This document shows, one piece after another, positions 190-52,558 of a stretch of 64,000 nt of DNA. Source of the stretch: Octopus vulgaris (taxonomy: Eukaryota); NCBI GenBank assembly GCA_951406725.2, contig OX597822.1, positions 5,084,001-5,148,000 on the forward strand. The letters run 5' to 3'. The translations under genes were made by a program, and so were the position numbers. A model generated the notes under the pieces. That model ran no database searches. It had not been told where the DNA came from and saw nothing but the letters and a program-made list of their open reading frames with translations. Position 1 is the stretch's first letter; the number at the start of each line of letters is the position of its first letter.

Positions 190-800
190 CTCCCACCTTT
201 GTCATGAACAGGAATTAATCTTCTCTCTTTCACTCCTTTGCACCACATGGGTTCAACTCCCCTCCCCTCTTCATCTGACTCTCCTCCTCTTCTCTCTTCA
301 TCTAACACCTAACTCTTCGCTTCACTCCTACCCACCTTCTCTCTTCATTGATACCCCCTCCATCCACCTCATCCCCACACAGCTCACTCCAACATACCCC
401 ACCCCATCTTCACATCCCCACACCCACTGTCATCTACACACACACACATACCATCATCAACACACTCACACATTACAGACGCACACATTCACACATCAAA
501 GTCACTAGCCTCTATCCAAACACACGTACTCTCACATACACACATGCATGCGCACCTTTTTGGGATCACCAGTACTTTATTATCTCCTCTTCTTCCTAGT
601 TCTTCTGTCAAACTATTTTTCCCAACCAATCACCATGACTTATCACTAAATCCACAAGGTTTTTTATTCTCTCTCTGTTTATTTCCTCTTATTCCTTTCT
701 GCTGAAGAGCGTAGGCTTGAAACGTAAATATCAAACTAATTCAACAGCTTGTTGCTCATACACCTGTCTTCATCTTTTCTTTTTCTGTAAATTTCAACTA
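190..800 (+). mobile_element. 5'-truncated 3' end of a Penelope-like (Neptune-type) retroelement, same family as 36700-37905
   Basis: Colinear with ~37150-37905 (catgaacaggaattaat...caactcccctcccctcttcatctgactctcct, pyrimidine/(CA)n 3' region, then hammerhead motif). Encodes the last GIY-YIG residues HEQELIF. The 3' end abuts (TA)n. Confidence 0.85.
694..729 (+). ncRNA. Degenerate minimal hammerhead ribozyme motif in PLE 3' end
   Basis: cttt-CTGCTGA-A-GAGC gtag GCTT-GAAA-CG-TA. The 3' strand of helix I is damaged by a deletion relative to the other copies. Confidence 0.45.
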
Positions 801-1032
801 TATATATACGTGTGTGAGTGTGTGTGTATGTATATGAGTGTGTATACATATGTGTGTGTCTGTGTATATATATATGTATATATTGTATATGTGTGTGTGT
901 GTATATGAGGGGTTCACTGGTGATCTAAATGAATAGGTATGCTGAGTAAATGCTACAATTGGTCATCCGTTAGGTTCCAAGTTCACAGCTGAAGCTGGAG
1001 CTAAGGATCTGTATTAGGCTTCTGATTATCAG

Positions 1033-1258
1033 GTATATATTGTATTAGAGGAAAAGGACAACAAACCAAGGCAGGACAAGTATCATTTAGAATATTTAAT
1101 TAAGGTAAGGTGAATTTGAAGTCTTACAGCTGTTTCTAGGATATCTCAAGTGATAGGCTAGCATGTCTGTACATGTACCCTAATTAAATATTCTAAATGA
1201 CTTAAGATATTTGCCCTTCCTTGGTTTGTTGTTCTTTAACCTCTAATATAATATATAC
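1033..1258. mobile_element. Fold-back element with ~75-80 bp imperfect inverted arms, inserted at TA repeats
   Basis: 1033-1107 (gtatatattgtattagagg...acaaaccaagg...tcatttagaatatttaattaaggta) is the reverse complement of 1176-1258. The spacer holds gtcttacagctgtttc, which reads GAAACAGCTGTA on the minus strand. Confidence 0.75.
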
Positions 1259-1301
<43 letters not shown>

Positions 1302-1330
1302 CATATATATATACATATATACATACATAT

Positions 1331-1686
1331 ATATGTAACATGGTATAATTATAAACAGGGCAAATTTTAACCATTTCTCTGCAGATTGAAAAGATAATGA
1401 AGAACTTTAACTGATTTTCCAACCTTATTGGGTTCTCATCAGAAGAGTCTACATTATTCTGACAGTCTCCAGAGAAACAAGCAGCCAAACTGTTTATATA
1501 TTCAATAAATGCAGCAGTTGCTCTATGAAGGAATCCTTAGTTTGCATGCTGAAAGTGTGTAACACTATAATTACCAGCGGACTGTCAATGGAGATCTTAG
1601 TTCAAACAGTAACGAAGTATGGTATAATAAATATGTAACATATGGTATAATTATAAATGGCAAATTTTAGCCATTTCACTGTAGAT
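1331..1686 (-). mobile_element. 300-bp-period element with 56-bp terminal direct repeat and an internal hammerhead (retrozyme-like or non-autonomous PLE)
   Basis: 1331-1386 matches 1631-1686 (atatgtaaca..tggtataattataaa..ggcaaatttta.ccatttc.ctg.agat), offset exactly 300. Both sides are flanked by (TA)/(TG) repeats. Confidence 0.7.
1401..1450 (-). ncRNA. Type I hammerhead ribozyme motif, decayed
   Basis: Minus strand: AGActCTT-CTGATGA-GAACC caataa GGTTG-GAAA-ATCAGT-TA-AAGtTCT. CUGAUGA and GAAA are intact, helix II is AACC/GGUU, helix I is CUU/AAG plus AGA/UCU. Helix III fits a decayed AACCGGTT palindrome. Confidence 0.65.
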
Positions 1687-1732
1687 ATATATGTACGTGT
1701 ATGTGTGTGTATATATACACATATATAATGGA

Positions 1733-1862
1733 TTACTTTCAGTTTTCATCTTCCAGATTCATTCTCAAAGATTTACTCTGCCTGGGGCTATAGTAGAAGA
1801 TGCTTGCCCAAGGTGTCATGCAGTGGGACTGGCCCCAAAGCCACACAGTCATGCCTACACCT
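1733..1862 (-). mobile_element. Decayed tRNA-derived SINE head/CORE (family of 54851-55262)
   Basis: tttcagttttcatcttccagattc...ggctatagtagaagatgcttgcccaaggtgtcatgcagtgggact matches 55105-55200. Confidence 0.75.
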
Positions 1863-4697
1863 GATATTCGCAAACATGGTCTACTTCACAGATGCACTAA
1901 AGTTACTCCAAGTAACATATAACCCATAAAAGTTAAGACATTAAATTTGGGTTCCCCAACACCTCAAGTAGAAGAAAGTGTTTCTTTTTTTTTTGATAAT
2001 TGAACGGATTCAGATATCTTACTTGATGATATATTTCTAAGTTCAACAAAATAAAACGGAAGGGTTAAAACTGGTGAGAATGAAATCCATAAAATGAAAT
2101 AATAAACCAAAAGGAAGTTTCTCCATTTACTGTTTCACTTGTTGGATGCAACAGTGATAAAGTACATTTCTCAATTTGTATCAGTGGACTTCATTTGCAT
2201 TTCCCAATCGTATTGTTGGCAGACAATAAAGCAGCAGTTGCAATCACATGCAAATATTAAAATTCACAGAACCACGTTAGGAATAGGAGAACTACGTTTC
2301 AAAAAATAAAAATCGAAAAAAGCTGATGAAAATGAAAACCTTCTCATAATGGTGCCAGTGGCCACTTCTTGAAGAATCTTTTTTTATTTTTCTCCATTTT
2401 TAGCCAGCATGAAGAGGACATAGAACATTTTGTGAATCTGGGAGAATCTGTCCTTTTTCTAGTCACTGACTATGGCTTGAAACAGCAAAACAATGCTCAC
2501 ACAAAATGCTTATATTTATTCATGAAACTAATAACTAATGTTTATGTCACCTGACTGAATATTTTAGTGGGAAGCAATATCAGAAATATAGTTGTTTTTC
2601 CCCACCACCCTAGCATAAATGTTTCCCTTTTCAAAACAAATCTCTTTTCGCAAGCCTAGCAGCAAATATTCCATGCAGCTATTTTATTGTTAGCACCAGT
2701 TTGCAGTGAAACAGCCTTCTATTCTATATTTTTTCTTTTTAATCATTGTCATTAAGTCTAATATCAACGGCAATGACAACAATAACAACTGCATTCAGCC
2801 TTCAAAATGTTCTCACCTGAGAGAGGATATGATATATTAAGATTAAAAAAACAAAAACCTAAAAAAAAACACAACTACTTTTAAATATTCATTGCTGCAA
2901 GCAGCCAGAACTTTCATCCTTTCTAACTTCTACCTCTGTAGAAAAACTAGGTAATGACAAACACACACACAAAAAAATTTAGAAAAAAAACAATCCCAAT
3001 AAAATCAGATGTAATAAACAAGTAAAAGAGTAACATAGCAGTAATGTGAATAACAGACGTATTAGGTGAGTAACGAGCTTCACATAACGAAGAAATACAC
3101 AAAACTTACATTTAACATTTTATATATCTTTGTATAATTTTATATTTTACAATTTCAGAATTTGAGGAACATGATAGCTACCATTTCTATAATTGTTTTG
3201 CCTTTTGTTAGAAATTTATTTCTTAGAAATAAATAAGTATGCAAAGATTCAGTTGCATTGAGTTTTCTTTTAATTTTAGTTTATATTTATAGATTTTTTT
3301 TTTTTATATTGAACATATTTGATTTCAGAACAACTTGGCAGAAAATTCTTCACCCAAACTACAGAACACTTCAGCTGTCATTAGAAACAACAAGCAACAA
3401 AATTTAAAAAAAAAAAAATATATATATACATATATAAAAGACAAATATGAATAAAATTATAAATATATAAATAAAATAGTCACAAACAACTCTGTAAAGG
3501 TGAGAATGGGATGGACACAACACCTGCAACTGCACACCCACACCCATGCATGCCCTCACACACATACACACACACACAGAATTGTGTTTTATATTCCAAA
3601 AAACTAGTCAACCACATCTTGTGAACATGTCAAGTCCATTATGGATGTTAAAGAGGAGAAGGAATTTATTATTCTCAATACTATAAAATTTCTTATCTAC
3701 TCTTGGTCAGAGAAGTATTAATTTTTGTTTTATATTTTACTTCATTTCGTTTGCTATTGCTAATGGAGCAGATTTTAATGTTCACATTGCAGCAAAGCTA
3801 TGTGGAGTTATTATTCGCAGCCATTTTTTTATGTTCTCCATATTTCTTTCTATAGGTCAACTCACCTTAGCTATAATAAACTGCAGCTAAATGTTTTATC
3901 ATACGTTTTTATATGTACAGTACCAGATTTCTTAGTTTCAATACATATATAGATTCATTCTGCATATTTCCAAGACAAAGAAAAAAAAGAAAAAAAAAAC
4001 AACAAAAATTCCATGTATGCACATACATCCAAAAATTTGTAAGGGCATAAAAACATTCACAACCATATGGTATTTAGGTATACAAAGCAACTGTTGCTTT
4101 CTGCACACATACATACATACATACATATGCGCACATATATGGACATATGTGTGTAAATACAAGTATGTTTATGTGTGTACATATCAATTCTATAAGCAGA
4201 ATATATACTTGTGTACAGATTTTCAATTCTTACATAAAGGCTATGAATTCTTATGCAACTCTTCACACCATACGTACAAATAGACAAATGTACATGCACA
4301 CAAACCCCAGCCACAGCATATATACACACACTCATACATACCTAGACACATATGCTAACAAACAGAAATTTCGAGAGATAAGCCTCTTTATATACTTTAA
4401 AAGTTTAACTCCAAAAATAAAATGAAATAATATCGACTGCCAAAAAACAGGGAAAAAAAAAACTTAAAGAGATGAAAAATCACTGTAAGTTGAAGATGGC
4501 ATTGCCTGAAAATTTGGAACAATATTCAAAGTGATCACTAGCATTAATTTCCTATTGTCTTATCAGTGTTTGAAGATAACTAGTTCATCACATAAATGCT
4601 GCGATATCTTAGCAGGAGGTTTCATACATTAGTTTCTTCATTTTTTTTCCGTTTATATTTTCAACAGATAAAAAAATTCAAATCAAATGAAATCATA

Positions 4698-7883: not shown

Positions 7884-8215
7884 TACACACACACATATAT
7901 ATACATATACACATAGACATGTGTGTGTATACATACACACACATTCACACATATGCCTATACAAACACACACACACACATAGATATACATATACACATAG
8001 ACATGTGTGTATACATACACACACATTCACACATATGCCTATACAAACACACACACACACATAGATATACATATACACATAGACATATGTGTGTATACAT
8101 ACACACACATTCACACATATGCCTATATAAACACACACACACATAGATATACATATACACATAGACATATGTGTGTATACATACACACACATTCACACAT
8201 ATGCCTATACAAACA
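7884..8215. repeat. ~80-bp minisatellite (about 4 units) built from CA/TA microsatellite
   Basis: The unit catagatatacatatacacatagacatRtgtgtgtatacatacacacacattcacacatatgcctatacaa(ac)n recurs about four times. Confidence 0.85.
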
Positions 8216-9330
8216 CTCAACAACTCTTATATTAATGATGCACACACACACATTCACACATACTTACATACACACTCAACAACACTGCTTATATTAGTGA
8301 CACACACTAATATATAACTGTCATATAGAGAGATTCTGCCAGAACATGCATTGAACATGCATATTTAAAACTGGTGACATTACATACATATCTGATCTGA
8401 AAGCACAGTATTTTCCTCATGAAAATGAAGATTAATGTAATCTCCCCACCCCCACATTTTTTTTTGGTTCTGATATATATATATTTATATGTATAAAAGT
8501 TATTTTAAGAATCATCACATTCACATACATTTACAAAGCAAATATTAAAAAAATGACATTTGTTAAAGATGCTTATTAATACTATTCAATTCATTTCAGA
8601 TTTGTATTTACAATTTTCTTAACCTGCACTATAAGAATTCCATGCCATTTGTCTTAATTTCAAATGCCTCCACATATTTTCTGTGGTTCTTTATCTATAT
8701 TATTTTAAGAACCACTTCCAATAACAGAACCACAACACCAGTTTAATATCTGTTCCAATTTGTGATTATTGTGCAAAAATGTAACCTTTTCTTTACATTA
8801 CCATATTCACACACATCCTCCCCTAAGGTCACATGCTCTAAATACACACAGATAAATTTTAAAGCATTTGTCATGTGACCTCTTTTGAAAATTCATATAA
8901 TATTTGCATCAAAATATTCTTCTGTTAAATTCTGTTAGGTCTGTCAAGCCAAGTGAGATAGTAATCATGGCCAATGCTGGTATCCAACCTATGCCAGCAT
9001 GGAAAACGGACATTAAATTATTATTATTATTATTATTATTATTCCATTTCATTCCTATCAGAATTGAAGATTTTATTTTTTGTGAGGTAAAAATAAGACA
9101 TTGTTTATTCAACAAGTGTCAATGGGGTCCATTTTCAATAGCCGTCAGATTTTTAAAGTATAAATGATGCACAAGGAAACCCCCAAAGTCACTGCAAATA
9201 GAGGGTCTCATTATCCCATGATAGCTTTACATACATAATATTACCAAAAATAATCATAGAACTAGGTTCCTCTTTGCAGTCAGAAACAAATACAATTTTG
9301 ATAGTTGCTGAATACAAAGTTCAGATAAAA

Positions 9331-9672
9331 ACATGTTTAATGGGGAGCTGAGTGATATAAACATGTATTTAATGGGTTGATTAAGTGATAGGAACACATG
9401 TTTAATGGGATGAAAAGAGTGGTATGAATTCATTTAATGGTCTACAAAGTGAAACCGGTATGTATTTAATGGGTTGAGAAGTGGTACAATTACATGTTGA
9501 ATGGTCTGCAAAGTTATATAAACATATATTTAATGGGCTGAGAAGTGATATGACCATACTTTTAAAAGGCTGTGATGTGGTATATATATACACTTAATGA
9601 GTTAGAGTGCTATGATCATATATTTAATAGCTGCAAAGTGATACCATCACAGGTTTAATGAGCTGAGAAGTC
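9331..9672. repeat. Diverged ~32-bp minisatellite, ~11 units, with TTTAATGG core
   Basis: Units start tttaatgg/ttgaatgg/cttaatga at ~30-33 bp spacing, e.g. tttaatgggctgagaagtgatatgaccatact. Confidence 0.85.
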
Positions 9673-14471: not shown

Positions 14472-15715
14472 TAGGTAGTTTTGAAAATAATGGCTGCTCT
14501 AAATGTTGTGTTTTGAAACACAATTTTATCATAGTATTTTAATTATATTTTAGGTGAATTTCAACATACTTCATAACTGTTGTATGCTCTTTAATAATTT
14601 TCTACTTATTTCAGACAGAAAACATTCTTGAAGCATAGGCGCCCTTAATTGCTTACTTTTCTTGCATGAGTTCAAGCTTGGGCACAATGCCTCCCAAACC
14701 ACTGCCAACATCAACAGAGCATGAGGAGAGGGATCCACAAGTGATCGCACAGTACAAAGGTGGTTTCAGAAATTCTGTTGTGGTGATGAGAGCCTTGAAG
14801 ATGAAGAAGGCAAAGGATGGTCATGTAGTCTTGACAATGAACAATTGAAAGTAATTGTTGAACAAAATTCACATCAAAGTATCAGAGAAATGTCTCAGGC
14901 ACTTGGTGTTGGTATTGCAATGTTCTCACACAATCTGCAGAAGATTGGTAAGGCGAAAAAGCTCGATAAATGGGTACCGCATGAACTCAATGAAAATCAT
15001 AATGTTCAGCATTTTGAAGTTTGCTCAATGCTCTTTCTGCAAAACACCAATGATCCTTTTCTTGACAGAATAGTCACTTGTGACAAAAAGTGGATCCTTT
15101 ATGATAACCATAAATGATCGGGTAATGGCTTGATTGTGATGGGTCCCCCAAACATTTCCCAAAGCCAAAGTTGCATCAGCAAAAGATTATGGTGACTGTC
15201 TAGTTGTCTGCAATTGGTGTTGTTTATTACAGCTTTCTAGAAGCCAATCAGAGCATTACAGCAGAGGTTTACTGCAAGCAACTTGCTGAAATGCATACTC
15301 ACTTGCAAAAATGAGACCTGCATTGGTGAATCAGCATGACCCAATTCAGCTCCACAATAATGCAAAGCTACATGCTGCAAGAATGACACTGCAAAAACTC
15401 ACAAACTTGGGATATGCGACTTTACCACATCTTCCATATTCTCCTGATCTTTCACCCACTGACTACCATTTTTTAAAGTGTTTAAACACATTTTTAAGTG
15501 ATAAAACTTTCAGGTCCAAACCAGGGGTGGAATCAGCTTTCAAACATTTCTTAGTATCAAAGCCAATACCTTTTTATCAACGAGGCATAAATAAACTCGT
15601 TGATTGATGGCAGAGATGCATAGATGTTCTTAACTCATCAAAACATTTCTGGTGTTGATTTTTCCAGAATAAAATTATATTTCTGAAATCAGCCATTATT
15701 TTCGGAACAACCTAA
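14471..15715 (+). mobile_element. Full-length inactive mariner transposon (Hsmar1/cecropia-like), ~1.25 kb
   Basis: Left TIR ttaggtagttttgaaaataatggctg after TA at 14469-70. Right TIR cagccattattttcggaacaacctaa ends at 15715. Transposase remnant lies inside. Confidence 0.93.
14630..15630 (+). pseudogene. Mariner D,D34D transposase pseudogene with stops and frameshifts
   Basis: HEFKLGHNA...RWFQKF..GDESLEDE, KWVPHEL, IVTCDKKWILYDN, LHNNAKLH (second D lost), PHLPYSPDLSPTDYH. Confidence 0.93.
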
Positions 15716-16020
15716 AATATATATATATATATATATAGTGCCAGTGTCATATAGAAAGCACCCAGCAATAGAAACCAAGCCAAATCAGACTGGAACCTGG
15801 TATAGCTTTCCAGCTTGCCAGCATGGAAAACAGATGTTAAAGGATGATGATGATATATAGTTAAAATTATGATTATATTTGGGTATAAACCTTGTAGGAT
15901 GCCATGTAAAGTATGTCCACAGATATTGGCAGCCTGATGTCAACATCAGTAGTGATGCAAATGCTACTGGTTTTATTTCAGGAATTTCTTGCAGTTCATG
16001 TAGTTTATATAAATAGACGA

Positions 16021-16377
16021 GAGACAGAAAAACAAATTCATGAGATTCTTTACTCAAATCCACTGCAGTTGTTTTGACTCATCCTGTATCTCTAGCTCAC
16101 AGGTGAGATGCTGTACAATCAATTGTCTTGCATCACAGGTACAGGTAGGTTGTGTCTCCTTAGATGACTTTTTAACTAAGTACCTGGCTTGGCTGAAATG
16201 GATAGAAGAAAGAGCAAGATGCTTGTTTCAAAAGTCACCGGAAGAGATACAATCTGCACCTGTGATGCAAAACAATTCATTTTACAGCATCTCACCTGTG
16301 AGGTACAGATGCACGATGAGTTGAAACAACTGTAGTGAGTTTGAATAAAGAATCTCGTGAATTCTATTTACTGTCCC
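16021..16377. mobile_element. Fold-back element: ~150-bp inverted arms with ~57-bp spacer
   Basis: 16021-16172 is the reverse complement of 16230-16377 (about 85% by eye). The right arm has gatgagttgaaacaactgtagtg followed by aataaa. Confidence 0.85.
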
Positions 16378-16427
16378 TGAACTATATATCTATATAAATA
16401 TCTATCTATCTATCAATATATATATAT

Positions 16428-16640
16428 AACGGGAAGCTTTATGAAAATAAACAAAAGATGAAGGCAGGTGGAAAACAAACGAACAATTGTATTAGTATGG
16501 TGCTCAGGAATATAAATAAAACAAGTCTTTTACGTTTCGAGCCTACACTCTTCAACAGAAAGATACACAGAAAAGAAACACGGAGAGAAACAAGGAGAGA
16601 AAAAAAATGCGTGCAGAAGCTAGCTATTCAACAGAGCGAT
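16428..16640 (-). mobile_element. Solo PLE-type 3' end/pLTR fragment (same family as 18826-18977)
   Basis: Reverse complement matches 18826-18977. Carries a hammerhead motif, and the 3' end abuts (TA)n. Confidence 0.85.
16526..16563 (-). ncRNA. Minimal hammerhead ribozyme motif (CUGUUGA variant)
   Basis: Minus strand TCTTT-CTGTTGA-A-GAGT gtag GCTC-GAAA-CG-TA-AAAGA. Confidence 0.6.
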
Positions 16641-17069
16641 TCTATGCACATACACACACACACACACAAATATATCAAATGAGAGAGAGATTGTATCATC
16701 AGACAGTATATGTATTAACTAGGTACAGAAAAGAACAACCCTTTATTATTTATATATAAATTATATTATCAAACAGTGTATGTACTAACTAATAACAGAC
16801 AGAACCAGCCTTCAATGGAACTCGTATCTATCATCTCTCAGATGTCTGTGTTATCAACTTCTCTCTGTAAAATTAGGTATAGGTGTTTTACTTATGATAT
16901 ATATTAATACTTCAATACTTTTGTTGTTTAATTTTACAGAGAGAAACAGAATAGTTGCTATATGATCTAATTATTAATACAACGGCCTAGAACGTTACAA
17001 GGTCTGAGTTCTGCTGGATTGTGAGTTCTCTTTTCTGACCCAAATTGGTTCTTATAATGTCTTTATCGT

Positions 17070-17330
17070 CATCATCATCATCATCATCATTTTAACATAC
17101 ACTTTTCCATGCTTGCATGGGTAGGAGGGAGTTTACTGAGATGAATTTTCTACAGCTGAATGCCTTTCCTATCACCAACCCTTACCTGTTTCCAAGCAAG
17201 TTTGTATCTCCCCATGACCAAACATGTTTTCAAAGAATACTTGAAATGAATGACACTTGTTTACAACTATCATATCATGACAAGACAAAGAGATGCTCAC
17301 ATATACAAACTTACACATTACATACACACA
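17070..17330 (-). mobile_element. SINE/LINE-tail repeat ending in (GAT)n (related pieces at 1-100, ~53865-54130, ~62650-62830)
   Basis: (cat)n then cttttccatgcttgcatgggt...tgcctttcctatcaccaacc, the reverse complement of the (GAT)n-tailed family, plus a shared cccatgRccaRa motif. Confidence 0.6.
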
Positions 17331-17397
17331 CAAACACATGCCAGTGTATCATATATCGCAAAAGAAGCACAATCTAAAGCATAGAGCAGTAATACAT

Positions 17398-17610
17398 TTA
17401 TATGCAGTTAAGTATATGTCCCATGGACGACTTGTCAGACTTTGAAGCCGAAAACATATAAGGGACTGTAACTCCCAGCTAGAGTTGAAGGACCGTAACA
17501 GATTCCTACCCACCAGATTTGAAGAATTATATGCCTTCGGCTGACGAGCCATCCATGGGACTAAACCCTTTATGGATCTGAAACCAGGATATATACTTAA
17601 CTGCATGTAA
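17398..17610. mobile_element. Small nested fold-back element with hammerhead-like core
   Basis: Outer IR ttatatgcagttaagtatatgtcc / ggatatatacttaactgcatgtaa. Inner IR gtcccatggacgacttgtcag / ctgacgagccatccatgggac. CTGACGA...GAAAC at 17541-17584. Confidence 0.65.
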
Positions 17611-17618
17611 TGGAGATA

Positions 17619-17827
17619 AGGCAGCAAGATGGAAGAATCGCTAGAACACTGGACAAAATGCTTAGCAGCATTCTGTCCATCTTTACATCCGCAGGTCAAA
17701 TTCAGCTGAGGTCAGCTTTGCTCTTCATCCTTGGGTGGGTGGATAAAATGAGTAGTGGAGCAGTGGGGTCGAAGTAATTGCCTTACCCCAACCCTGGAAT
17801 TGCAGGCCTTGTGCCAAAATTTGAAAC
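17619..17827 (+). mobile_element. MetaSINE-like SINE copy
   Basis: aggcagcaagatggaagaatcg...gaggtcagctttgctcttcatcctt...ggccttgtgccaaaatttgaaac matches 7011-7421 and 59246-59460. Confidence 0.75.
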
Positions 17828-17893
17828 ATCTATCTATATATATATATATATATATATCTATATATGCCAGTGGCATATATATATATATATATA

Positions 17894-18173
17894 TGCCAGT
17901 GGCATGTAAAAAGCACCATCCGAATGTGGCCGATGCCAGCGCCGCCTTGACTGGCGTCCATACTGGTGGCATATAAAGAGCACCAACTGATCGTGGCCGT
18001 TGCCAGCCTCCTCTGGCACTGGTGCTGGTGGCACGTAAAAAGCACCCACTACACTCACGGAGTGGTTGGCGTTAGGAAGGGCATCCACCAGTAGAAACAC
18101 TGCCAGATCAAACCCCAGTTGAACCATCCAACCCATGCTAGCATGGAAAACAGATGTTAAACAATGATGATGA
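17894..18173 (+). mobile_element. (GAT)n-tailed SINE 3' portion
   Basis: aaagcacccactacactcacggagtggttggcgttaggaagggcatcca...acccatgctagcatggaaa...(gat)n is near-identical to 29575-29750. Confidence 0.8.
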
Positions 18174-18186
18174 TATGTATATATAT

Positions 18187-18810
18187 AAATAGTGCAATAC
18201 AAGAATATTGTTTTCCAGTAAAATAAAGCACCATATGGTTAAAGTATAAACATAAATATAGAATGGTGGTACAAGAATGTACCAATATCTACTGGAAATA
18301 AAAGTTGATAATATACGACGCTATAAAAAAGCTTCACTGTATATACTGGCAAAGACGTATGCAGGTGGCAAACATAAGAAATTTCATTTTACCTGTATGA
18401 AGAACATTAGATAAATGTCCAACTCTTGCATTGCACTATTTAAAATTTTTCTTTGAACTTTTTTCCCTGTTCTTGCTTCTGTTAGCAGCTAGGTGTTCAA
18501 GCGAGTATACTGGCATTGATGTGGCAACAATTGAAATTTTGTTCTGGTAAATCTAGCTGAAGGGAACTAATCAAGTTTATGCTAGCAAACATATCTTGAA
18601 GAGTTTGAAACCTAGGTCCTAGATTATCCACATCTGGGTTGGACATTTATCTGATGTTTTTCATACAGGTAAGACGAAATTTCTTATGTATGCCGTCTGC
18701 ATATGTCTTTCCCAGTATATACAGTGAAGCTTTATTATAGTATCATATATTATTAACTGCTATTTCCAATAAATATTGGTGCATTGTTATACCACCATTC
18801 TAAATTTCCA
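18187..18810. mobile_element. Nested fold-back element with 165-bp inverted arms enclosing a hammerhead ribozyme
   Basis: 18259-18423 is the reverse complement of 18638-18802. A second IR pairs 18187-18204 with 18424-18441 (17/18). TA repeats flank both sides. Confidence 0.88.
18550..18625 (+). ncRNA. Type I hammerhead ribozyme with extended helix II and palindromic helix III
   Basis: AATCTAG-CTGAAGG-GAACT aa TCAAG...CTTGA ag AGTTT-GAAA-CCTAGG-TC-CTAGATT. Helix I is 7 bp, helix III is the palindrome ACCTAGGT, the triplet is GUC. Deviations are A9>G and C11.1>U. Confidence 0.75.
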
Positions 18811-18825
18811 TATATATATATATAT

Positions 18826-18973
18826 GTTTCTTTTCTGTGTATCTTTCTGTTGAAGAGCGTAGGCTCGAAACGTAAAAGACTTGTTTTATTTATATTCCTG
18901 AGCAGCATACTAATACAATTGTTTGTTTGTACTCCACCTGCCTTCGTCTTTTGTTTATTTTCATAAAGCTTCC

Positions 18974-18977: not shown

Positions 18978-19009
<32 letters not shown>

Positions 19010-35700: not shown

Positions 35701-36769
35701 GATGGTTATTGACATAAGATTCTATAATGATGAAAATCAAAGAGTACCAGACTTGATAGTAAGGGATATGATGTCTCCTGTTAGAAAACATTTCATATAG
35801 TGATGAAGGTCACTTAGAAATCTGTGATCCATGATACCGTAATCAGTTGTGTATGTCAGTCATTAGACATTGATTACATATGTGGAAATAATACTAATTT
35901 TGTCCTTGGGCAGCAACTGTTATTTCCTATTAGCTAACCCCTAGAAAGTATGAAAAACAGCTAATATTTCCTTCAAACTTTGGTTTTTATCACATTTATT
36001 CAAACTCCAAAGAATCCTTCTCAACACACAGCTATGATGCTTCCCCACTACTCCTGCTCATGATCAGAGATGCACATATCATCAGCCACTAACAGACAAG
36101 CAAATCTGTGGTATTGAGCAGAATATTTGATATAACAATATTTCTGCTTCAGTAGCTCAGTAAATCTGTCTGAAAAGTAATGGAAAATAGGTCAGTTTCA
36201 AAACAAGTCCAGGTCACAAAAGCAATGTTTGAAGGGAATAGTAGTAATTTCTTTTGATTTCTAGATAGAAGCAAATAGAAAATAACACTTACTAACCAAA
36301 GACAAAAAAAAAAATAAATAAATGTTACGCAGTGTAATTATAGACTTTATATTTATCATGATACTTTCCATCTTGCATTCTTAGCATAATATCAAAAGTT
36401 ATCCTCCTTAAATCACAAGGATCTCTATGACCAATTTGTTGTTTAGGTAATATTTTACATGGATTAAGGATGAATTTTTCACGGCGTACTACCCTAGACC
36501 ACTGCTTTATTACTGATGGAAAACTGAACTTATTATTGAAAGCCAATGGATTAGTTTACATAGATTTATTACTAATTCACTGGCTTCCAGTGTTTCATCC
36601 TTCATTATCAAACTTAGTATTCCTGGATTTTCTAGGGTACAGATCTTATGTCAATTATCGTAACTTCATCCCTTGCTTGTCCATTCATATGAAAAATGAC
36701 CATAACATCAACATGTCCATCCAACCCCTCCACTTCACACATCTTCCCCAACATACTCCTCCCTCCTTC

Positions 36770-37239
36770 AACCTATGTGGCCTCTTGGTCCACAGTTTCT
36801 TCCCTAACCCCTCCTTCCAACCTGGATTATTCACCTGCTCCCACCCGTGCAGCCTACTTGCCCCTACCTCTCCAACACCACCATCCTCACAGGCACCCAT
36901 CATTGTCCCTATCATATCACTGACTCCTTTACCTGCATTTCTAGCAACATTATTTACTGCATCACCTGTTCTTTCTGTCCTTCTCTGTACATTGGTCAAA
37001 TGGGACACCACTTGACTGACCAGTTCACGGAGTACCTCCAAGACATTAGACTCAGCAATGACACCCCGATCTCACACCATTTCTGCTCTACCAGTCATTC
37101 ATTACAACACCTGTCTGTATTTGGATTATCTTTGCATAGGAGCCATCCGGACACTCGTCTTCACCATGAACAGGAATTAATTTTCTTTCTTCACTCCTTT
37201 GCACTACATGGGCTCAACTCCCCTCCCCTCTTCATCTGA
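36770..37239 (+). pseudogene. PLE linker zinc-finger plus GIY-YIG endonuclease remnant
   Basis: NLCGLLVHS...PGLFTC, frameshift, then TCPYL...FTCISSNIIYCITCSFCPSLYIGQMGHHLTDQFTEY...PISHHF...EQELIF...HGLN. The catalytic Arg region is mutated. Confidence 0.9.
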
Positions 37240-37772
37240 CTCTCCTACTCGCTTCTCTTCATCTGACACCTACTTCCTCTCTTCAGTCCTACCCACCTCT
37301 CTTCTCCTCTCTTGCCCTGACACCTACTTTCTCTCTTCACTCCTACCCAACCCCCTTCATCGATACCCCTCCATCCACACAAATCCTACTCCCACATACC
37401 TCACCTCTACCCCCACATACCTCACCTCTACCCCCACATCCTCACCCCACCCCTACCCCACCCTCACACCCCCACACTTAACACCGCCACACCATCTTGC
37501 ACACACTAGCACTAACCATTTTCCAGCACCCACACCATCATCCACACACACACACACACACACATTACAGACACACACATCATCGTTACCAGCTGCTTTC
37601 CACATGTGCACACACACACTCACATACACACACACCTTTTGGTATCACCTATACTTTATTATCTCCCCTTCTTCCTAGCTCTCCTGTCTAACTACCTTTG
37701 TCCAGCCAGTCGCCATGATTGACCACTAACTCCAAAATTTTTTTTCATTCTCTCTGTTTATTTCCTCATGCT

Positions 37773-37810
37773 CCTTTCTGTTGAAGAGCGAAGGCTCGAA
37801 ATGTAAAAGA
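37773..37810 (+). ncRNA. Minimal hammerhead motif (CUGUUGA variant) in PLE 3' end
   Basis: cCTTT-CTGTTGA-A-GAGC gaag GCTC-GAAA-TG-TA-AAAGa. Confidence 0.6.
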
Positions 37811-37943
37811 CTTTCTTACCTTCCCAAGCATCAAACTAATACACCTTCTTGTTGCTTATACACATGTCTTTGCCTTTTGTTTTTCTGTAAAGTTCAACCA
37901 TATATATATTGTTTGATTTGCGAAATAGTGGTTTTGTCTCGAA

Positions 37944-39692: not shown

Positions 39693-41249
39693 CTGCAGTA
39701 ACTAAACTACAAAAAAATGTTGAAATAGACTGAATTTTTGGTGAGGAATCTAATAGTGAAAGTCACCACAAGATTGATGCCATAAAAAGAAAAATCTTAT
39801 TAGGCAAAAACTGGTCAAATTGGAGGTGGATTAATAACTGATATTGTATTCAAATCATTATATATATGTTATTTTAAATGACAATTTAATATAGTTCAGA
39901 TTTCTTAAAAGATCTAAATGAGAAGAATCTAAACTGAAAACTGCCTCAAGGTGGTGCCACTGAAAAAACAAAACCCAGTAAAGTGACAATCAAGCGAAAT
40001 TTCTTCAGGTTTTTCCTTGAATTTTAAAAGATACACTTCGGTTTTGTATAGCATAGGAAGTCACCAGTCTGATTTCTTTATTTCTATCTCTCTTATCCCA
40101 AATATTTCTGCATTACTCAGATCTTTAACTTTTCAACCGATCATGAGCAAAGCAAATTATTTAGACATAAGAATGAAAAGAAATCTCAGAATATAAAGAC
40201 ATTTAATTTTCCTCCATTTAGTATCAACATTTCATGCCTGTCATTAAAATTAATAATTATGTTTTAAATTATATATAATTACATATTATTTATTCTGAAC
40301 TTTATAGCTTGAGTCTCTTGAGACTAAAACTTGGTGTGAACTTTTGGAAATATGCTAAATTATAAAACTTCGGAACCATAAGAAGTAAGAAGTATGACAA
40401 GACATTATAGTAACGACGACAACAAATGTATAAGTGTGTGTGTGTGTGTGTGCGTGCATGCGTGTACGTGCATAAGTATATATGTGTGTGAAGGCTGGAA
40501 TGTAAGTATTAATGTTCAGAAATAAAGTAATGTGAAATGTAAAAGATGCTTTTGAGAATATCAAGAATTAATTAGTTCTTGATATTGTTGAAATGTTAAA
40601 ATTGAAAAAAAATATATTAAAGGAAAAAGAGAAAAGGAAGAAAGAACAATCTGATCAATGATTAACCAATCAAATCAGAGTATTGACCCAAACCTGACCT
40701 TTAACACAATTTCATAAAAAAAAGAGAAAAACAAGCATGTTCCGCTCATTATCTACATGTGTGTTTGCATATGTATATGAAGTACTGAGTCTGTGACATT
40801 GCAGTATGTTAGAATCCAATTAGATAGTTGTCAGAGCCCTGGCAGGTAACATACCTGCTTACTCTCTTCCTCTCACTCTCTCTTTTTTTGATCCTCTTTA
40901 ATTATTTGAAAATAATTGTAAAAAAATACTAGAAAGGGTAAGGTCATGTAGAGCACAAAATGTTGGGTAAATTAGCAGTAATGGCAAATGAGAAAGACAA
41001 GAACTAGAAAAATAGAAGATAGAGTTGAAATTTGCTTACCAGGAATGAAGAAAAAAAATACTTCCTGAGTTATTAATAGTAAAAACTAATTTCATTTTGG
41101 AATATTTTTACTCATTTTTAAGCATTTAGTTTTGTATATAAGTCATGTTTGCACAGGGCCTCAGCATCTGCTTAAATTGCAAATGATTGCCATTTAAAGG
41201 CCAATAATTACTTCCACATGGTAAAAAAAACAAAAAGAATCAATGAAAG

Positions 41250-42335
41250 TACTAGAGGTTGCCATGGAAATCAGGATGAGCTCCAGCTATGTTGACTTGT
41301 GAGTCGGTAATGCTGAGATCCATATCTTTTCTCAGTTCACTGAATTTGGTCCAAATTTATATGGCCATTATATTGGCACCATCAAACTCACTCTTGTTTC
41401 ATTTTCCTCATCACCTTTGTCAACTTTTTCTTACCCCACCTAATAACTCACTTACACCATCTCCCCAACTTCGGTCACCTTCCTAAACATTTCCATTCAC
41501 CACCCAATTTTACTGTTGCCTTTTCAGTTTTCCTCGAAATCACCAACTCCTCCGGCTACCTTGATTTTACATCATCCAATCCTGTTCCACTTTTAACAAA
41601 CTTGCTAGACCTAATCCCAATGTCTTCGCCTCTGCAGCCATGACCCTAACTTTAAAATTCACTCTCAATATATGGTGCATCACTTTGTCCAATATGCTGA
41701 ACTGTAGTCAACACTGCCCACATCAGCTCCCTCACACTGACCACATCTTGTCCAGTGTCTCATCCACCATCAACTGCTTACTTTCCCTTCACTTACAGTC
41801 ATCACATCACCTTTCCAGTGAACAATATATGTCAGTGCTGGATCTTCCAATTCTCACCTCCTCACTCACTCCCCTCCTGTAGATGTACTAGCAATCTGCA
41901 TCACTTACTGGTTCTCAACTCCCCCCAGCCTCCCACACACCAAATGCAGATCCATCTTTTGCTTGTCCTCCATTAACGGTGTATATTCCTCCGGCACCTA
42001 CCATCCTCACAGCACCTAGCAACTCCTCCTTCCATGCCATGGACCAATTTATGTGTACTGCCAGGAATCTCATTTATTGCACCAAATGCTGACCATGTGA
42101 TCAGCTGTAAGTAGATATCTAGTCAACAGGTTTCATGAATACCTTCAGGATGTCCAACATTACAATGCTGGGTCACTAGCAACCTGCCACATTCATTCAC
42201 TTTACCTATTTCTTTGCACCTCTCCATCTTCAATATTATCCCTCATCACAGTTCCGGGTTACAATGTAAACAACTTATTCTCCACCTCAGAACAACACAA
42301 CCACATTTGGATTAAGCAATGAACTTGCTTTCCTC
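41250..42335 (+). pseudogene. Old Penelope-like (Neptune) RT plus GIY-YIG remnant
   Basis: EVAMEIRMSSSYVDL (GVAMG.RM.PSYA), PNLYGHYIG (LY.RYIDD), LRLCSHDPNFKIHSQYMVHHF, TILTAPSNSSFHAMDQFMCTARNLIYCTKC*PC. Confidence 0.78.
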
Positions 42336-43369
42336 TAACTACATACATTCACACATACACTCCAATGTACCAACACATACCGATATACATGACACACTAT
42401 GTTGTTCCATTTTTAACACCTATGTACAAACCATGTTTCACTGCATATGTCGCATCTAATGCATGTGTGAGTGCATACATGTTTATGTATGGGTGTGTAC
42501 ATCTGTATGTATGAGTGTTTATATGAACACCAGTTAATATTAAAAAATGGGGTTAGGTTTATGCTGAATCCCTTTATGTTTTACAACTTTGCAGATAGAG
42601 ATGGATAATATACCAGACTACAGTAAGTATTGGATAAAAACTTGAAAGAAGGTGCCCCAGCATGGCTGTGGTTCAATAACTGAGAATAAAAGAGTGAATA
42701 TAGTCTTCTAGTTATTTTTATTTACATATCAACGGAGAAATAACTAAAATAAAATGGAAAGAGAGAGAGATGGTTTATAGGTGCTTCAAAGACTTTTTAC
42801 TCGGAGTGAAAGTTTAGCTCTGGTTTCATGATATTAGATAAGAGATAAAGCTCTCATTGGACAGTCTATCATAGGCAATAATTCCTCCTGACAGCTAGGG
42901 AAAGCACAATAACATGCATTACATGAATCAATCTATAATCTAAGATTTTATTTATCTATATGTAGATATTGAGGCCTACATGCATATATAGATGACTGAA
43001 TATAAATATACATGACTGTATGTGGCTGAAAGTAATTGTGGAAGTAATTTCCTACAAAAATACACACACACACACACAAAAAAAAATTTAACCCAGTCAG
43101 TACATAATAATTAGTTTAATTTTATACTTTCTTAAAATTATTCGTCAGCTAAAGAAATGTCGTCTGCATGACTAGTGCAGTTTCCAGTACTGGTCATGAA
43201 CAGACTGGGTACTTACCCAAGGTGACTCATGGATCTAGGGACCCAATGCTAATCTGCTGTGACTAGCTGGCAATAAATAATTGTAGGGCCCTCTTTGCTT
43301 TGCTTCTATTACTGTTAAGAAATACCTATTTCTTTATTACCCAGAGGGGACAAACAAGGACAGACATAG

Positions 43370-45628: not shown

Positions 45629-47294
45629 AGAGAGAGCAAGAGAGAGAAGGGTGGTAGAGAGACTCAGAAATGAAGTAAGTATTTATGAATTGACTGATTT
45701 GGTAAATGAAATGAAGTGTCCTGTTTTGATGAGAGTGTCTGGCCAATACTTTCCCCATCAAAAAAAAAAAAGATAAAAAAAAGACTTGGTATATCTTCCT
45801 AATTATGTAAATTAAAATAACTTAGAATAAAGAGACCTATCAAGAATTAAAACGAAACAGCTGTATCAGATTGAAAATTTCAACAATAAGTCATCAACTT
45901 GTACATTTTGCTTCTAAATACCCACATATACTCTACCCTTTATGCACATGTATATATATATATATATGTTTAGTGCTGTTGTTAGTTTTGTACCATGGCT
46001 TCATTCTTGTGTCTAGATATCTGAACAAAGTGATCTTAGAAGCCTTTCACATTAAACACATATACACAGTGTTCTAAATCATATCCCATAACTATGTCAA
46101 GCACTTTGTTTTACATACACACACATGAATAAAATCCAGTATCCCAAAACACACTTTATTCCATTTGTTCATGTATTTACATCTGTTTCTCCATGACAAC
46201 CTGAGTTAGGTGAATATATATTATTTAGACATAGTTTTACTGATGGATGGGCCACCAATCTTTGTTTTTCATATATTTTCTTCAACTTTTCCCTGAAGAA
46301 ACTTTTGTAAGAATGCGCAATGAGACCACAAAGTCTGCACCAATGGGGAAGATGAAGACATATCCCAGAATGTGATTTCTGACAGGTGTTGTGCAGCTTC
46401 CAACTTACAGAGATGACTGGAGCACAATTTCATCTCTGAGACAGGAAACAGATACTCAGGAATTGTTATCTTGTACATATTTGTGAAAACATCAACTTGT
46501 AATTAACCTGCTATCAACCTACTTAGGCAAGTGGCACTAACTGTGAGAACAGATAAACATCAATATTCATAAGGTACACCAACAATCATGACATCCTCTC
46601 ACCATCTTCCATTCAAATTCATGCAATAGATATATTTCTATGATTTTTCTACTAGACTGATGGCATTTTTCATCAAAATCTCTGGTTTCTAACTGAAAGA
46701 TTTACATAGAGAAAAAACAGCAGAAATTTATGAGTTAAATCACTGCAGTCAAGTATTTTCTAAACACAGTAGGAATACAACCAACAATGAAAATACTGAA
46801 TATTTTTCTTATATCTGAAAAAAGTTATATCAACATAAGTGAGATAAAAACATGCCAAAAATCAAATGAGATATCTGTTTGTTATCAGCTCTATAGAGTT
46901 CTTACCAGAGGGGAAGCTCGTGTTTTTCCAAGCATACTAACAATGTCAGTGAAAGAAAACTGTTCCAAGTAATATTCAAAACTAGATTGCCAAGAAATTA
47001 CTGCTCTGCCATATAAATAATCTAGAATTTATATAAATGTTATGAATGTACAGACATAATACAGCAAAGACAGAATGACAGAAAGAATATATATATGTTA
47101 TATTTATATAGATAAAAACTAATACAAAATTTTAAAAAATTGTTCTTAAAAAATAATTTCTGAAAAAGCACAAACATATACAACTAAACAAACAAAAAAA
47201 GTCAGACAACTACTGCACTGCTATAACTTCATTAAAATACTTATTGTCAAAGAAATAACATAATCAATATTAATATCCAATTAATAACAAAACT

Positions 47295-48791: not shown

Positions 48792-48996
48792 ATCAACCTG
48801 CTACATTAGCTTACTCTCTCCATCAAATCAACGTCACCTGTACAGGTGCACAGTGTACCACACATCAAGTATCAAAGCAATCACAGAGCAAGGTGAAATG
48901 AGGTGTTTTGCTCAAGAATGCAACACAGTACCTGGTCCACGACCTGAAACCACAGTCTTGTGATTGTGAGTGCAACATCCTAAAGACTACACCATA

Positions 48997-49292
48997 TGCC
49001 CTGCATGGCTCAGTGGTTAGAGCGTCGAGCTTACGATCGTGAGGTTGTGAGCTCGAATCCCGGACCGGGCTGCGTGTTGTGTTCTCGAGCAAGGCACTTT
49101 ATTTCACGTTGCTCCAGTTCACTCAGCTGTAGAAATGAGTTGCGACGTCACAGGTGCCTTTCCCTTGGAGGCCGGTATGCATGGGCGACTGCTGGCCTTC
49201 CATAAACAACCTTGCCCGGACTTGTGTCTAGGAGGGTAACTTTCTAGGTGCAATCCCATGGTCATTCATGACCGAAGGGGGTCTTTACCCTT
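48997..49292 (+). mobile_element. tRNA-derived CORE-type SINE with an alternative 3' tail
   Basis: A box tggctcagtgg, B box gagctcgaatcc, CORE-like gcaaggcactttatttcacgttgctccag. It diverges from 5780-6110 after aaatgagttg. A decayed head-to-head copy lies at ~48820-48995. Confidence 0.85.
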
Positions 49293-49337
<45 letters not shown>

Positions 49338-49635
49338 ATAAGTAATACATACATATATCTATACATATATACTTGTATCTATACATATATACATGTAACT
49401 ATACATACATACATACATACATACATACATACATACATACATGTATATATATATATATATCATAATGATATGAGGGAATATCATTCCAAACTTACAGGGA
49501 AAAATTCAATTTAGAAATACTATATCAAATTTCACAAACTATAATATAATATATATATATATATAAATTAGAAAAACCCCCACCTTTTATCTATTCAATA
49601 CTGAAAAATTAAATTATACCACTAAATTACATACA

Positions 49636-50173
49636 CAGTCTGGGGAGTTAGGTGACCAGATGTTAGGGGTGATGTCGTTGCAGAAATTGTCTAACTGCCA
49701 TGACTAGGTTCTCCAGCTTGTGTGGCATGGTGTAGTGTCCTGTTGCCAGACATAGGGTTTTCCAGAAGTCACCCTCTTGACTCAGGGCAGTACTATCTCC
49801 TCCTGGTACTTGGTGTAGGCCTTCATGTTGAGTCTGAAACTGTGTGGGGAAAATCAATGGAGGCAGAATGTCACCATCAATAGTGATCACTTCAAACACC
49901 ATGATGTTGACTGGATGTTTGATTTTTATCACTTTCAGTGCATGCCCTCAGATTGCGCTGTGAAATGTTCGCATTGGAGCTTCCAGCATGAATGCCAAGC
50001 AGTACAGCATGTCATTTCCAAATTTTTGGCAAAGTGAATTGCATCAAGGTGCTGTTTTTCTCACAGACAGTGCCCAGCTGACCCTACTATACTGTGTAGT
50101 CAACAAAATCAAAAACAATGCACATGTGTGAAATTAGAAATATAAATGGCAACTATTTACCCATTGCACCCTG
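49636..50173 (-). mobile_element. Internally deleted, one-ended Tc1/mariner (DD37D/maT-like) transposon
   Basis: Minus-strand TIR TA-CAGGGTGCAATGGGTAAATAGTTGCCAT. Transposase remnant KHPVNIMVFEVITIDGDILPPLIFP...YVWQQDTTPCH...IWSPNSPDC. Confidence 0.82.
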
Positions 50174-51319
50174 TATATATATATATATATGGAGGGTGGG
50201 GGAGAAATTGGTAATGTGAAAGAGAGTACAAATGCTGACACTCTTGAGATTAGCTGATGTTTTCAATGGGAAATAAAGATGGAGAGAGAGTTGTACCTCT
50301 TGCGGTGCTTTTATAGCCTCTCTAGGTTATATATTTTGATTAATATACTTATTTACCGGCTTCAGTTATTGAACTGAGGCCATGCTGGAGCACCATGTTC
50401 AGAGATTTTAGCCTATGATAGCCACTTCAATCCTTATTTTATCAATGTGATTTGTATAGCAGATGACTTCCACAAAATTATTAGTATTGTTGATGGAGTG
50501 AATGAGTAGTTATCAAGAATCCAGATTGGATTGTTCATTTATTTTATCAAGACTTCTCTCACTACAGAATTTCCTAAAAGAAGCAAACATTAAATTTCTC
50601 TTAGAAATAATTTCTTTCAGCTAGACAATAGCATCCTCAATACAAGGCTGTGCCGCTATCTTAATCAACTCTAATGTCTTACAAAGAATTATTTCATAGA
50701 TTCATATGAGAAATAAGTTCAGAATAGAGAGACATGAAAAAAAAATGATGATGCAAAGAATTTCAACTATTCCTCTATCGACTGGTTATCAGTTAAATAA
50801 TTAACAATATCCAGAGAAACAATTTCTCAGCAGAAGACAGTTTTCTTAACTCATTCATATTCTTTTTCTAGTTTATTTATATTTTTGTGTGTGTGTGTGT
50901 GTGTGTTTAAAATGTATGACTGAATATCACAGTCAATTTATCTAATATCACTGGAAGCACTTGTTTTAGTCACTCTCAAATGACAACAGGCTAATGTTAA
51001 AATCATCGAAATTCATAATCCATGATAATTGAAAAAAATATGGTCTAAAATCAAACAATGTCTCCTTTATACACACACACATATACTTATGTGTGTGTAT
51101 GTATATATGACTGAAACCGGTACTGAAATGTTCTTTATAAAATTATTTTAGCATTTTCTATCTTGACTTGTTTTTTCATATATATCAACTCGTGTGTTCC
51201 TTTTCACCCTTATACATATACATATATATATATACACACACATATATACATATATATATACACATTTATACATACATTTATATGTACATATATATATACA
51301 TATATACACATATCCATAT

Positions 51320-51360
<41 letters not shown>

Positions 51361-52156
51361 TACATACATACATACATACATACATACATACATACATACA
51401 TAAACTATACAATCCAAATGAAATTGAGAGAAAACTGAGAGAAAAGGACTTTATTAAAAAATTCAAACCCAAGCTTAATAAACAATGATAAAAAAATAAA
51501 TTTTATTTAAGGTTTAAAAGTCTTATCCCCATATCTAAAAATTAAAAATCTCTAAAAAGTACTGCTGTCATTGTTTCTAAAAATAAACACTGAAAAATGG
51601 TATGGCATCATTTCTAAAAGTAGCAAAGCAACTACTACTGCTGTCCACAAAGGACAAAATTAAACCAATCAACCACAGTTGAAACCAATGAACACAACTG
51701 TCACTACAACAATATGAACCTGAAGGTTGCATAAATGTAAGAAAGTATACTAGGTCAATAAGAATGGACATTTGATATTTCATTTGTTCAATAAGAATAG
51801 ACAATTAATACTTCATTTCGTTTCTTTTTACCATATTATTTTACATCTTATATCAATAAGACAATAAATAAAACGTGAAAAACAGAGTTGGAATTCCTTT
51901 GAATAGAATATTCTTCTATACACAATCATACAAACCCCTTTGTATATATATATATGTGATGATGATACATATATACACATATATATATGTATTTATACAT
52001 ATATATATATATACACACACATACTTATATACACACACACACACACATATATATATATATGCATATACACATGCACATATATATATATACACACACATAT
52101 ATATACACATACTTATATATACATATGTAAATATATATATATAAATACACATACAC

Positions 52157-52207
<51 letters not shown>

Positions 52208-52558
52208 CACATGTACACACACATATATATGTATGTATAACAAAGTAAAGTTGTAAGGTACCGCACGAGTGGAAATATATATGAAAGAAGGTTTGAAAAT
52301 GCAATTTTAAAGATGTTTATTCACTTGACCAGTTTCACCTTTTTAGAAAAAGATTGTCAAACGTAAAATGTAAAGCTTTAAATAAGCTTTGTTGTGTTAA
52401 GTACTGGTTGTCACAAAAGTTTCAAAATACAGATATAGGTTCTTTGATAATAATAAGAAAATATTAAAAACAGTTTACAAGAAAGTTATCTAAGAAAGTA
52501 ATCAGAACGGGACTCCAAAAAGCATTTTGAGTTCAATGAAAATCATGTTTGTTTGGTA

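Follow-up and report, generated by a model that had tools for sequence, protein, structure and literature searches.

Hammerhead ribozymes in Penelope-like elements (PLEs) that target TA repeats have already been published, as has a PLE origin of retrozymes, and the phenomenon treated here is mostly known. Naiad and Hydra are described as clades that target (TA)n, Neptune is biased toward microsatellites, non-autonomous PLEs are on record, and Octopus bimaculoides harbors a Hydra-1 PLE that carries a hammerhead and inserts in (TA)n (PMC8557442). According to the same source, PLE insertions are partial tandems truncated at the 5' side, and many are accompanied by a neighboring truncated copy in inverted orientation and by a 30- to 40-bp tail at one end; an inverted 5'-truncated copy is noted for the Hydra-clade element Penelope-13_HM, and hammerheads are remarked to be possible parasites of PLEs. 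A PLE protein cuts AT-rich DNA on both strands and extends both, and its reverse transcriptase (RT) uses two internal RNA start sites that delimit the tail (PMC11167929). We analyzed a 64,000-nucleotide stretch of Octopus vulgaris DNA (GCA_951406725.2, contig OX597822.1, positions 5,084,001 to 5,148,000; hereafter, the window) in which complete or damaged hammerheads of about seven unrelated types sit just upstream of TA microsatellites.

Single dispersed hammerhead motifs are known to derive from truncated PLEs, and opposite-strand hammerhead pairs have been described (PMC4209133). Retrozymes have been treated as PLE derivatives (PMC7229834; bioRxiv 10.64898/2026.07.22.740005; review PMC6765202), and the bioRxiv study sampled 31 vertebrates, three insects, and one coral, with no mollusc. 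Among cephalopods, 235 hammerheads were counted in a squid genome (PMC6962438), and the curated annotation of O. vulgaris gives Penelope-like elements 6.83% and 190 families, and its supplement does not mention hammerheads (PMC13282606). Our literature search, with subscription papers, Repbase, and the Zenodo repeat library outside its scope, found no report of dispersed hammerhead units devoid of open reading frames (ORFs), or of PLE hairpins resembling miniature inverted-repeat transposable elements (MITEs), in cephalopods. With a probability of roughly three in four, several PLE families that target TA have each left behind truncated, inverted, and miniaturized ends in the window.

Hammerhead motifs in the window

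The window has a GC content of 33.8% and abundant TA and CA microsatellites (97 tandem-repeat entries); no host gene was identified in it, with the ORF list as the sole basis. A first strict hammerhead descriptor retrieved no matches because it allowed no unpaired base before helix II; such a base, between A9 and helix II, has been reported for PLE hammerheads (PMC4209133). When this base and one core change were allowed, a second descriptor retrieved three complete motifs, compared with 0.3 to 0.85 per shuffle. A scored scan for type I hammerheads yielded seven matches at a score of ≥15 versus a mean of 0.45 per shuffle, none of 300 block-wise dinucleotide shuffles reaching seven, figures that are somewhat optimistic because the descriptors were adjusted on the same data. 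Motifs are thus denser than in dinucleotide-shuffled sequence, as a preliminary description of this DNA had anticipated.

The seven matches comprise four copies of one PLE family (family A), the elements designated E5 and E2, and a motif at 51720. Each of them shows the three helices and the core elements (CUGANGA, GAAA, and UH) of a type I hammerhead, with no more than one core position altered. This set is incomplete in E1 and in the hammerhead halves, whereas E3 shows it only by way of a 77-nt helix II and E4 only by way of a paralogue. The numbers expected per shuffled window were <0.003 for the match at 18557 (E5), 0.003 at 18847, 0.01 at 16558, and 0.027 at 51720, with weaker values at 37778 (0.10), 1442 (E2; 0.25 taken alone), and 699 (0.42). 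In every case, the hammerhead is directed toward the TA end. All of the elements listed in the preliminary description were found at or near the positions it gave. Of the types it listed, the PLE 3'-end family and the element at 18187-18810 have complete motifs, and the motif in 1331-1686 is near-complete.

The motifs outside family A might instead be chance matches in AT-rich, microsatellite-rich DNA. This reading can draw on the halves, which occur at chance level (see below), on the Rfam results, in which no hammerhead is present among the matches listed (150 of 285 for the window; 2/2 for 18440-18900), and on the unremarkable predicted folds of E1, E2, and E3 (z, -0.4 to -0.6), yet it must contend with expectations of <0.003 and 0.007 per window for E5 and E3 and with paralogues that restore a core base of E3 and supply the missing half of E4. 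We regard it as highly improbable overall, and it may hold for the halves at 51113 and 52325.

An endonuclease-linked hammerhead family

Family A joins a hammerhead to PLE coding sequence. The remnant at 36700-37905 (plus strand) consists of a broken Cys linker, a GIY-YIG domain with CCHH residues (36853-37236), a hammerhead (37774-37807), and a tail that runs to (TA)n. The copy at 190-800 (plus strand) is a 5'-truncated member of the same endonuclease-linked subtype and retains the last endonuclease codons, the 3' region, a hammerhead (695-728), and a tail reaching (TA)n at 799; positions 203-256 match 37165-37217 at 91%. The hammerhead and tail lie directly downstream of the GIY-YIG remnant. 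Two short copies, at 16429-16640 (minus strand, ∼200 nt) and at 18825-18976 (plus strand, between two TA runs), contain complete hammerheads at 16529-16562 and 18843-18876. The four hammerheads of the family thus start at 695, 37774, and 18843 on the plus strand and at 16562 on the minus strand, and all four copies stop at the same aligned point against TA.

The GIY-YIG domain retrieved 2,471 HMMER matches at an E value of ≤0.001 (426 at ≤1e-10), whereas a word-based homologue search found none and a Pfam run on the remnant itself gave no GIY-YIG match. Full-length relatives are ∼900 amino acids long, with RVT_1 followed by GIY-YIG. The CCHH residues (C36, C39, H76, and H82), as well as YIG and R102, are invariant in the remnant and 18 of the 150 listed matches, and the CX2-5CxxC linker of Neptune and Nematis, intact in homologues, is split across two frames at ∼36830-36860. 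The preliminary description had called both copies GIY-YIG/RT remnants. The endonuclease and the common type of TA-abutting 3' end are indeed present, but both copies are truncated and contain endonuclease sequence only; RT remains are located elsewhere, at 41246-41698.

Family A resembles Neptune and Nematis PLEs in its C-terminal GIY-YIG domain with CCHH, Cys linker, and palindromic helix III (PMC4209133; PMC8557442), as well as in microsatellite targets, 5' truncation, and a hammerhead placed close to the 3' end with a single unpaired base ahead of helix II. Judged by these motifs, it fits either clade. In contrast to those elements, only a broken ORF remains, and core position 6 is U or C in 4/4 copies (U in three, C in the copy at 190-800). 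The hammerhead otherwise has GAAA and GUA, a 4-bp helix II, and a palindromic helix III of 2 bp; in the best two copies, helix I measures 5 bp. An alternative register with the core UUGAAGA and a 1-bp helix II was dropped, as CUG(U/C)UGA makes helices I and II contiguous. In two other hammerheads, Mg2+-dependent cleavage drops strongly upon an A6C change (PMC7151607), and the literature search found no cleavage test of A6U. By analogy, family A, the most abundant family, may cleave poorly.

Paralogous contigs were compared by depth for E3, E4, and family A up to ∼16640; the DNA runs of four organisms contain 30 to 75% of the words from 14500-24000. Family A reaches a contig depth of 1.4 to 3.8 million in run X1, or 2e4 to 6e4 times the single-copy depth; summed contig depth is not copy number, and we take the family to be on the order of 1e4 to 1e5, with several subtypes pooled. 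The two short copies have a common 5' flank that differs from that of the endonuclease-linked copies, and six contigs of run X15 have a loose end where TA is reached 12 nt further on. These two features suggest an ORF-less form of ∼200 nt, which is likely non-autonomous and of very high copy number. Scans of metagenome, viral, and prokaryote contigs with the family A pattern returned 0 loci.

Contigs covering 16416-16523 carry family A tails of other lengths, and two or more further subtypes, distinct in tail or flank, have the same hammerhead. Both short copies adjoin a hairpin element across one TA run (16429/16392 and 18812/18825), which suggests that short family A copies and hairpins have repeatedly used the same TA tracts.

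ORF-less units and TA-flanked hairpins

The most complete of the hairpins is E5 (18186-18812, plus strand). Its hammerhead (18551-18624) has a 7-bp helix I, an 8-nt palindromic helix III, GUC, and a G at position 9. The arms (18245-18423 and 18638-18816) are identical at 153/179 positions, and a 58-nt extension is confined to the left end. Its final 19 nt recur in sense at 18424-18442, 110 nt before the hammerhead (18/19 identical; 0 of ∼5,000 random 36-mers score equally high), and therefore a circularly permuted unit of ∼425 nt without an ORF is implied. The extension and the sequence preceding it have a predicted fold of -25.8 kcal/mol, computed with no shuffle control. The anatomy of E5 fits the published pattern of PLE insertion point by point. 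A pattern scan of metagenome contigs for E5 returned 0 loci. In both arms, the tail (18638-18730 on the plus strand, and its inverted copy) also contains 5' and 3' splice-site-like motifs about 47 to 56 nt apart; introns are known from the terminal repeats of PLEs.

E2 (1331-1686, minus strand) is an ORF-less unit of ∼300 nt in partial tandem, with direct repeats of 52 nt (1335-1386 and 1635-1686; 46/52 identical) and a hammerhead (1405-1445) whose core is exact and whose helix III is weak. Like non-LTR (long terminal repeat) retrozymes, which are proposed non-autonomous PLE derivatives (PMC7229834), such units are devoid of ORFs, a few hundred bases long, and equipped with a type I hammerhead. 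Those retrozymes are defined by tandem arrays together with circular RNA; the units here are dispersed partial tandems of 1.0 to 1.2 units, some fused to an inverted copy, and the window contains no array of ≥2 tandem hammerhead units.

E3 (16006-16392, plus strand) is a TA-flanked hairpin with arms of ∼185 nt. A hammerhead can be parsed at 16235-16338 only if helix II is a 77-nt domain, for which 0.007 matches are expected per window under a post hoc descriptor. The one core mismatch, at 16240, is replaced by the canonical base in most of the contig depth in 4/4 runs (613/724 in X1), evidence that is independent of the hammerhead descriptor. The arms have a contig depth of 950 to 3,800, the center 79, and the single-copy flank ∼60 to 64. 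Because the center is thus at ∼1× and the arms at 15 to 60× the single-copy depth, and because the arms are joined elsewhere along their length in other contigs, the hairpin junction is private to this locus and is not a family trait.

The hairpin E4 (17398-17610, plus strand) has a CUGA box in each arm (17541, plus strand; 17438, minus strand), and its arms differ in their deletions; within the window, it has neither helix I nor a cleavage triplet. In a paralogous contig of run X4 (depth, 51), 17421 is joined to 17550 by 23 other letters that read, on the minus strand, CGAAA, a near-palindromic helix III, and GUC. The end of this insert is complementary, with one mismatch, to the bases before the left-arm CUGA box, and the two E4 arms look as if each were a complete hammerhead that has lost a different part. 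Hence, the hammerheads that the preliminary description placed in 16021-16377 and 17398-17610 are both backed by paralogous contigs, although they are incomplete within the window itself.

E1 (1033-1258, minus strand) is a TA-flanked hairpin that we read as a direct copy with hammerhead parts (1125-1165) joined to an inverted copy of its 80-nt tail. Three of the four parts of the hammerhead described there could be traced, namely, a hairpin resembling helix II, the GAAA box, and a helix III palindrome followed by UA, but the CUGANGA box is decayed or lost beyond recognition. The same helix III occurs in a hammerhead 3' half at 45830-45951 (plus strand), 85 nt before (TA)n, and the two loci have a 12-mer in common (0.008 expected). 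Insertion in (TA)n and type I hammerheads are features in common with Hydra-clade PLEs, whose helix III arms of 3 to 4 bp are resembled by those of E1, the half at 45853, E3, and the E4 paralogue (PMC8557442). In contrast to that clade, no Hydra ORF is linked to them in the window, from which the helix III motif of Hydra-1_Obim is also absent.

Long terminal inverted repeats with TA flanks are what one would expect if the hairpins were MITEs of DNA transposons with TA target duplications that captured PLE ends and carry the hammerheads as passengers; TA-targeting DNA transposons do exist (PMC4486113), and a presumed mariner transposase remnant at 14725-15607 also speaks for this reading. The hairpins share with Tc1/mariner MITEs their small size, terminal inverted repeats, and TA flanks, but they differ in the asymmetric ends of E5, the private junction of E3, and the internal ribozyme. 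A fixed structure with symmetric termini is seen neither in E3, given its junction, nor in E5, given its ends. The arms of E3 run almost to the center and include the ribozyme, its junction is absent from paralogues, and the hammerhead always points to the TA end, all of which makes a transposon origin quite improbable.

Association with TA microsatellites

TA flanks were scored as (TA)3 starting ≤12 nt from an element end, with ends set by hand from alignments. By this measure, TA adjoins 11/13 homology-defined ends, belonging to 8/9 elements (E4 fails the test at both ends), compared with 7/20 3' ends of repeats resembling short interspersed elements (SINEs) and a background of 7.8% (Fisher P = 0.011 and 0.014). 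To avoid circularity, the comparison omitted four elements for which TA itself marks the ends. The controls were copies that reach the query 3' end: 10 ends of one family, 3/7 copies of a second, and 7/11 of a third, with the SINE-like label being our own; a fourth family was omitted because its 3' end is undefined. The claim that TA adjoins most elements more often than SINE controls was borne out (11/13 versus 7/20; P = 0.011), with SINE-like ends enriched as well. TA enrichment is therefore real and is not exclusive to hammerhead elements.

Six hairpin-like repeats without TA flanks gave no hammerhead match in the scored scan or the long-helix-II scan. Hairpin or inverted-repeat elements with neither TA nor hammerhead lie at 48886-49114, 35898-36307, 22507-22742, and 23103-24561 and are probably ordinary MITEs. 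At 62024-62209, a single (TA)n tract separates two SINE-like tails in facing orientation (97.7% identity, 44 nt), a TA case without a hammerhead.

Several PLE families or one enzyme

On the reading that we favor, GIY-YIG endonucleases of several PLE families would nick TA repeats, and the RTs would copy RNA from a point 25 to 190 nt past the ribozyme. Early stops of the complementary DNA (cDNA) would leave halves and short 3' ends, priming on both target strands would yield two truncated cDNAs joined head to head as a TA-flanked, MITE-like hairpin, and differing priming sites would produce a tail extension at one end, as in E5. Some families without an ORF would persist as non-autonomous, retrozyme-like units of 200 to 425 nt (E2, E5, and short family A). 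These would depend for movement on a PLE protein acting in trans, with the parent family of each as its likeliest source. Nicking, priming, cleavage, and trans-mobilization are steps that we infer. Halves and hairpins are accommodated because 5' truncation and inverted copies are routine for PLEs: E2 is a partial tandem, E1, E3, E4, and E5 have inverted copies, and E5 has a one-sided tail. The hammerheads are predicted to act as dimers or aided by protein, provided that they act at all. A driving role for the ribozyme is disfavored because catalytic hammerhead mutants do not reduce PLE insertion in vitro (PMC11167929) and because family A is changed at position 6.

A second, probable PLE 3' end, unlisted in the preliminary description, bears on the number of enzymes. 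At 51402-51942 (plus strand), 28 codons and a stop are followed by a candidate hammerhead (51716-51757) and a 190-nt tail to (TA)n. The peptide (51402-51488) shows the pattern R-x3-E-x3-I-x4-P-x-LN before the stop, which lies 230 nt upstream of the hammerhead at 51720; the pattern occurs once in the window and in 0 of 150 shuffles. We take it to be the C terminus of a shorter GIY-YIG type, and the segment is likely, from these sequence features, to be the 3' end of another PLE family. Its tail contains a 33-nt tandem duplication.

The preliminary description had proposed that one TA-targeting PLE enzyme moves independent, unrelated ribozyme parasites, fixed hairpin families among them. Short ORF-less units do exist, a PLE RT can start in vitro on template sequence that has no homology to the cleaved DNA (PMC11167929), and the depth of family A, which is not copy number, is consistent with such a parasite. 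These observations are set against tails that show no significant similarity across families (best P = 0.012 among 91 pairs), against two endonuclease C termini (Neptune/Nematis-like at 36853-37236 and the shorter pattern at 51402-51488), against a helix III that comes in several types, similar to those of different PLE clades, and against the private junction of E3. With unrelated tails and two endonuclease ends, several PLE enzymes are likelier than one, and we consider the single-enzyme proposal unlikely. What stands of it is the occurrence of sequence-unrelated types and PLE remnants that have the same kind of 3' end oriented to (TA)n, together with some short ORF-less units. The link it drew from microsatellite abundance to ribozyme spread would be hypothetical here; SINE-like ends are TA-enriched as well, and PLE insertion in vitro was not lowered by catalytic hammerhead mutations.

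A number of points weigh against the multiple-family reading. No ORF is physically linked to E1 to E5 in the window, and neither empty sites nor target-site duplications could be seen. The intact PLE ORF that was sought was not found, nor was a named or close full-length partner, the best full-length homologues being ∼42 to 43% identical. The 51402 peptide gave no significant match to a Neptune-like alignment profile (0.4%). The 77-nt helix II of E3 has no stable predicted fold, the completion of E4 was read by eye from a single contig, and the 58-nt extension of E5 exceeds the published 30 to 40. As the contig comparison did not cover E1, E2, or E5, the short unit lengths of E2 and E5 could be one-off deletions. 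The fitting of descriptors to the same data and the hand-set ends of the TA test count here too, as does the excess of TA at SINE-like ends over background (7/20 versus 7.8%; P = 5e-4).

A further-reaching proposal, which is tentative and on balance doubtful, is that ORF-less hammerhead RNAs of 200 to 425 nt are dispersed mobile families in their own right, routinely inserted as fold-backs and filed as MITEs or SINEs, with one U6/C6 family at tens of thousands of copies. If so, a sizeable part of the repeats classed as MITE, SINE, or unknown would be PLE-mobilized ribozyme RNAs, some of them moved by unrelated PLE enzymes. The value of the locus is mainly for annotation, as it illustrates how PLE by-products may look when both cDNAs are short (MITE-like hairpins), and it adds several hammerhead variants not picked up by Rfam models here. 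Within 630 bp, E5 retains a structured 3' end along with the two RT start sites predicted for it; this compact natural template could inform the origin of PLE inversions and tails, an open task according to PMC8557442. With a very abundant family that has U or C at position 6, it could be asked if cleavage is required of PLE hammerheads at all.

Hammerhead halves and other features

The halves that the preliminary description reported at 45853, 51113, and 52325 do not stand out as a class. The window contains 12 GAAA-palindrome-UH motifs versus 11.7 by chance (101/200 shuffles), or 8 versus 7.4 in a second count (133/300 shuffles); 6-nt palindromes alone are enriched (5 versus 1.7; 7/200 shuffles). 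Individually, the half at 45853 is backed by its 12-mer in common with E1, but those at 51113 and 52325 have no such backing, their support being TA flanks alone. The former begins a 73-nt insert between TA runs (51110-51180, plus strand) that is not above chance on its own, and the latter, the weakest item, is a possible 3' half with an imperfect palindrome (52283-52345, minus strand) ∼45 nt before a TA run.

Several candidates were rejected. An apparent likeness of 51113 to 52325 was not recovered on comparison, and that of the E1 tail to the family A tail was not significant (P = 0.014 among 91 pairs). A 32-nt tandem at 9351-9671 (∼10 decayed units) has GAAA-palindrome-UA in 1 of ∼10 units, which was taken as chance, and a Hydra-like half at 55461-55473, with G where cleavage would take place, does not exceed chance.

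A third, more decayed PLE remnant (41246-42340, plus strand) has RT-region and endonuclease matches, and neither a hammerhead nor a TA end was seen in it. Its RT remains (41246-41698) are decayed, with an RT-region match at 41255-41506 (E = 4e-7). The broken ORF at 14725-15607 (plus strand) is presumably a mariner transposase remnant. At 7885-8216, four copies of an 82-nt CA/TA-rich unit (95% identity) form a recent higher-order microsatellite duplication.

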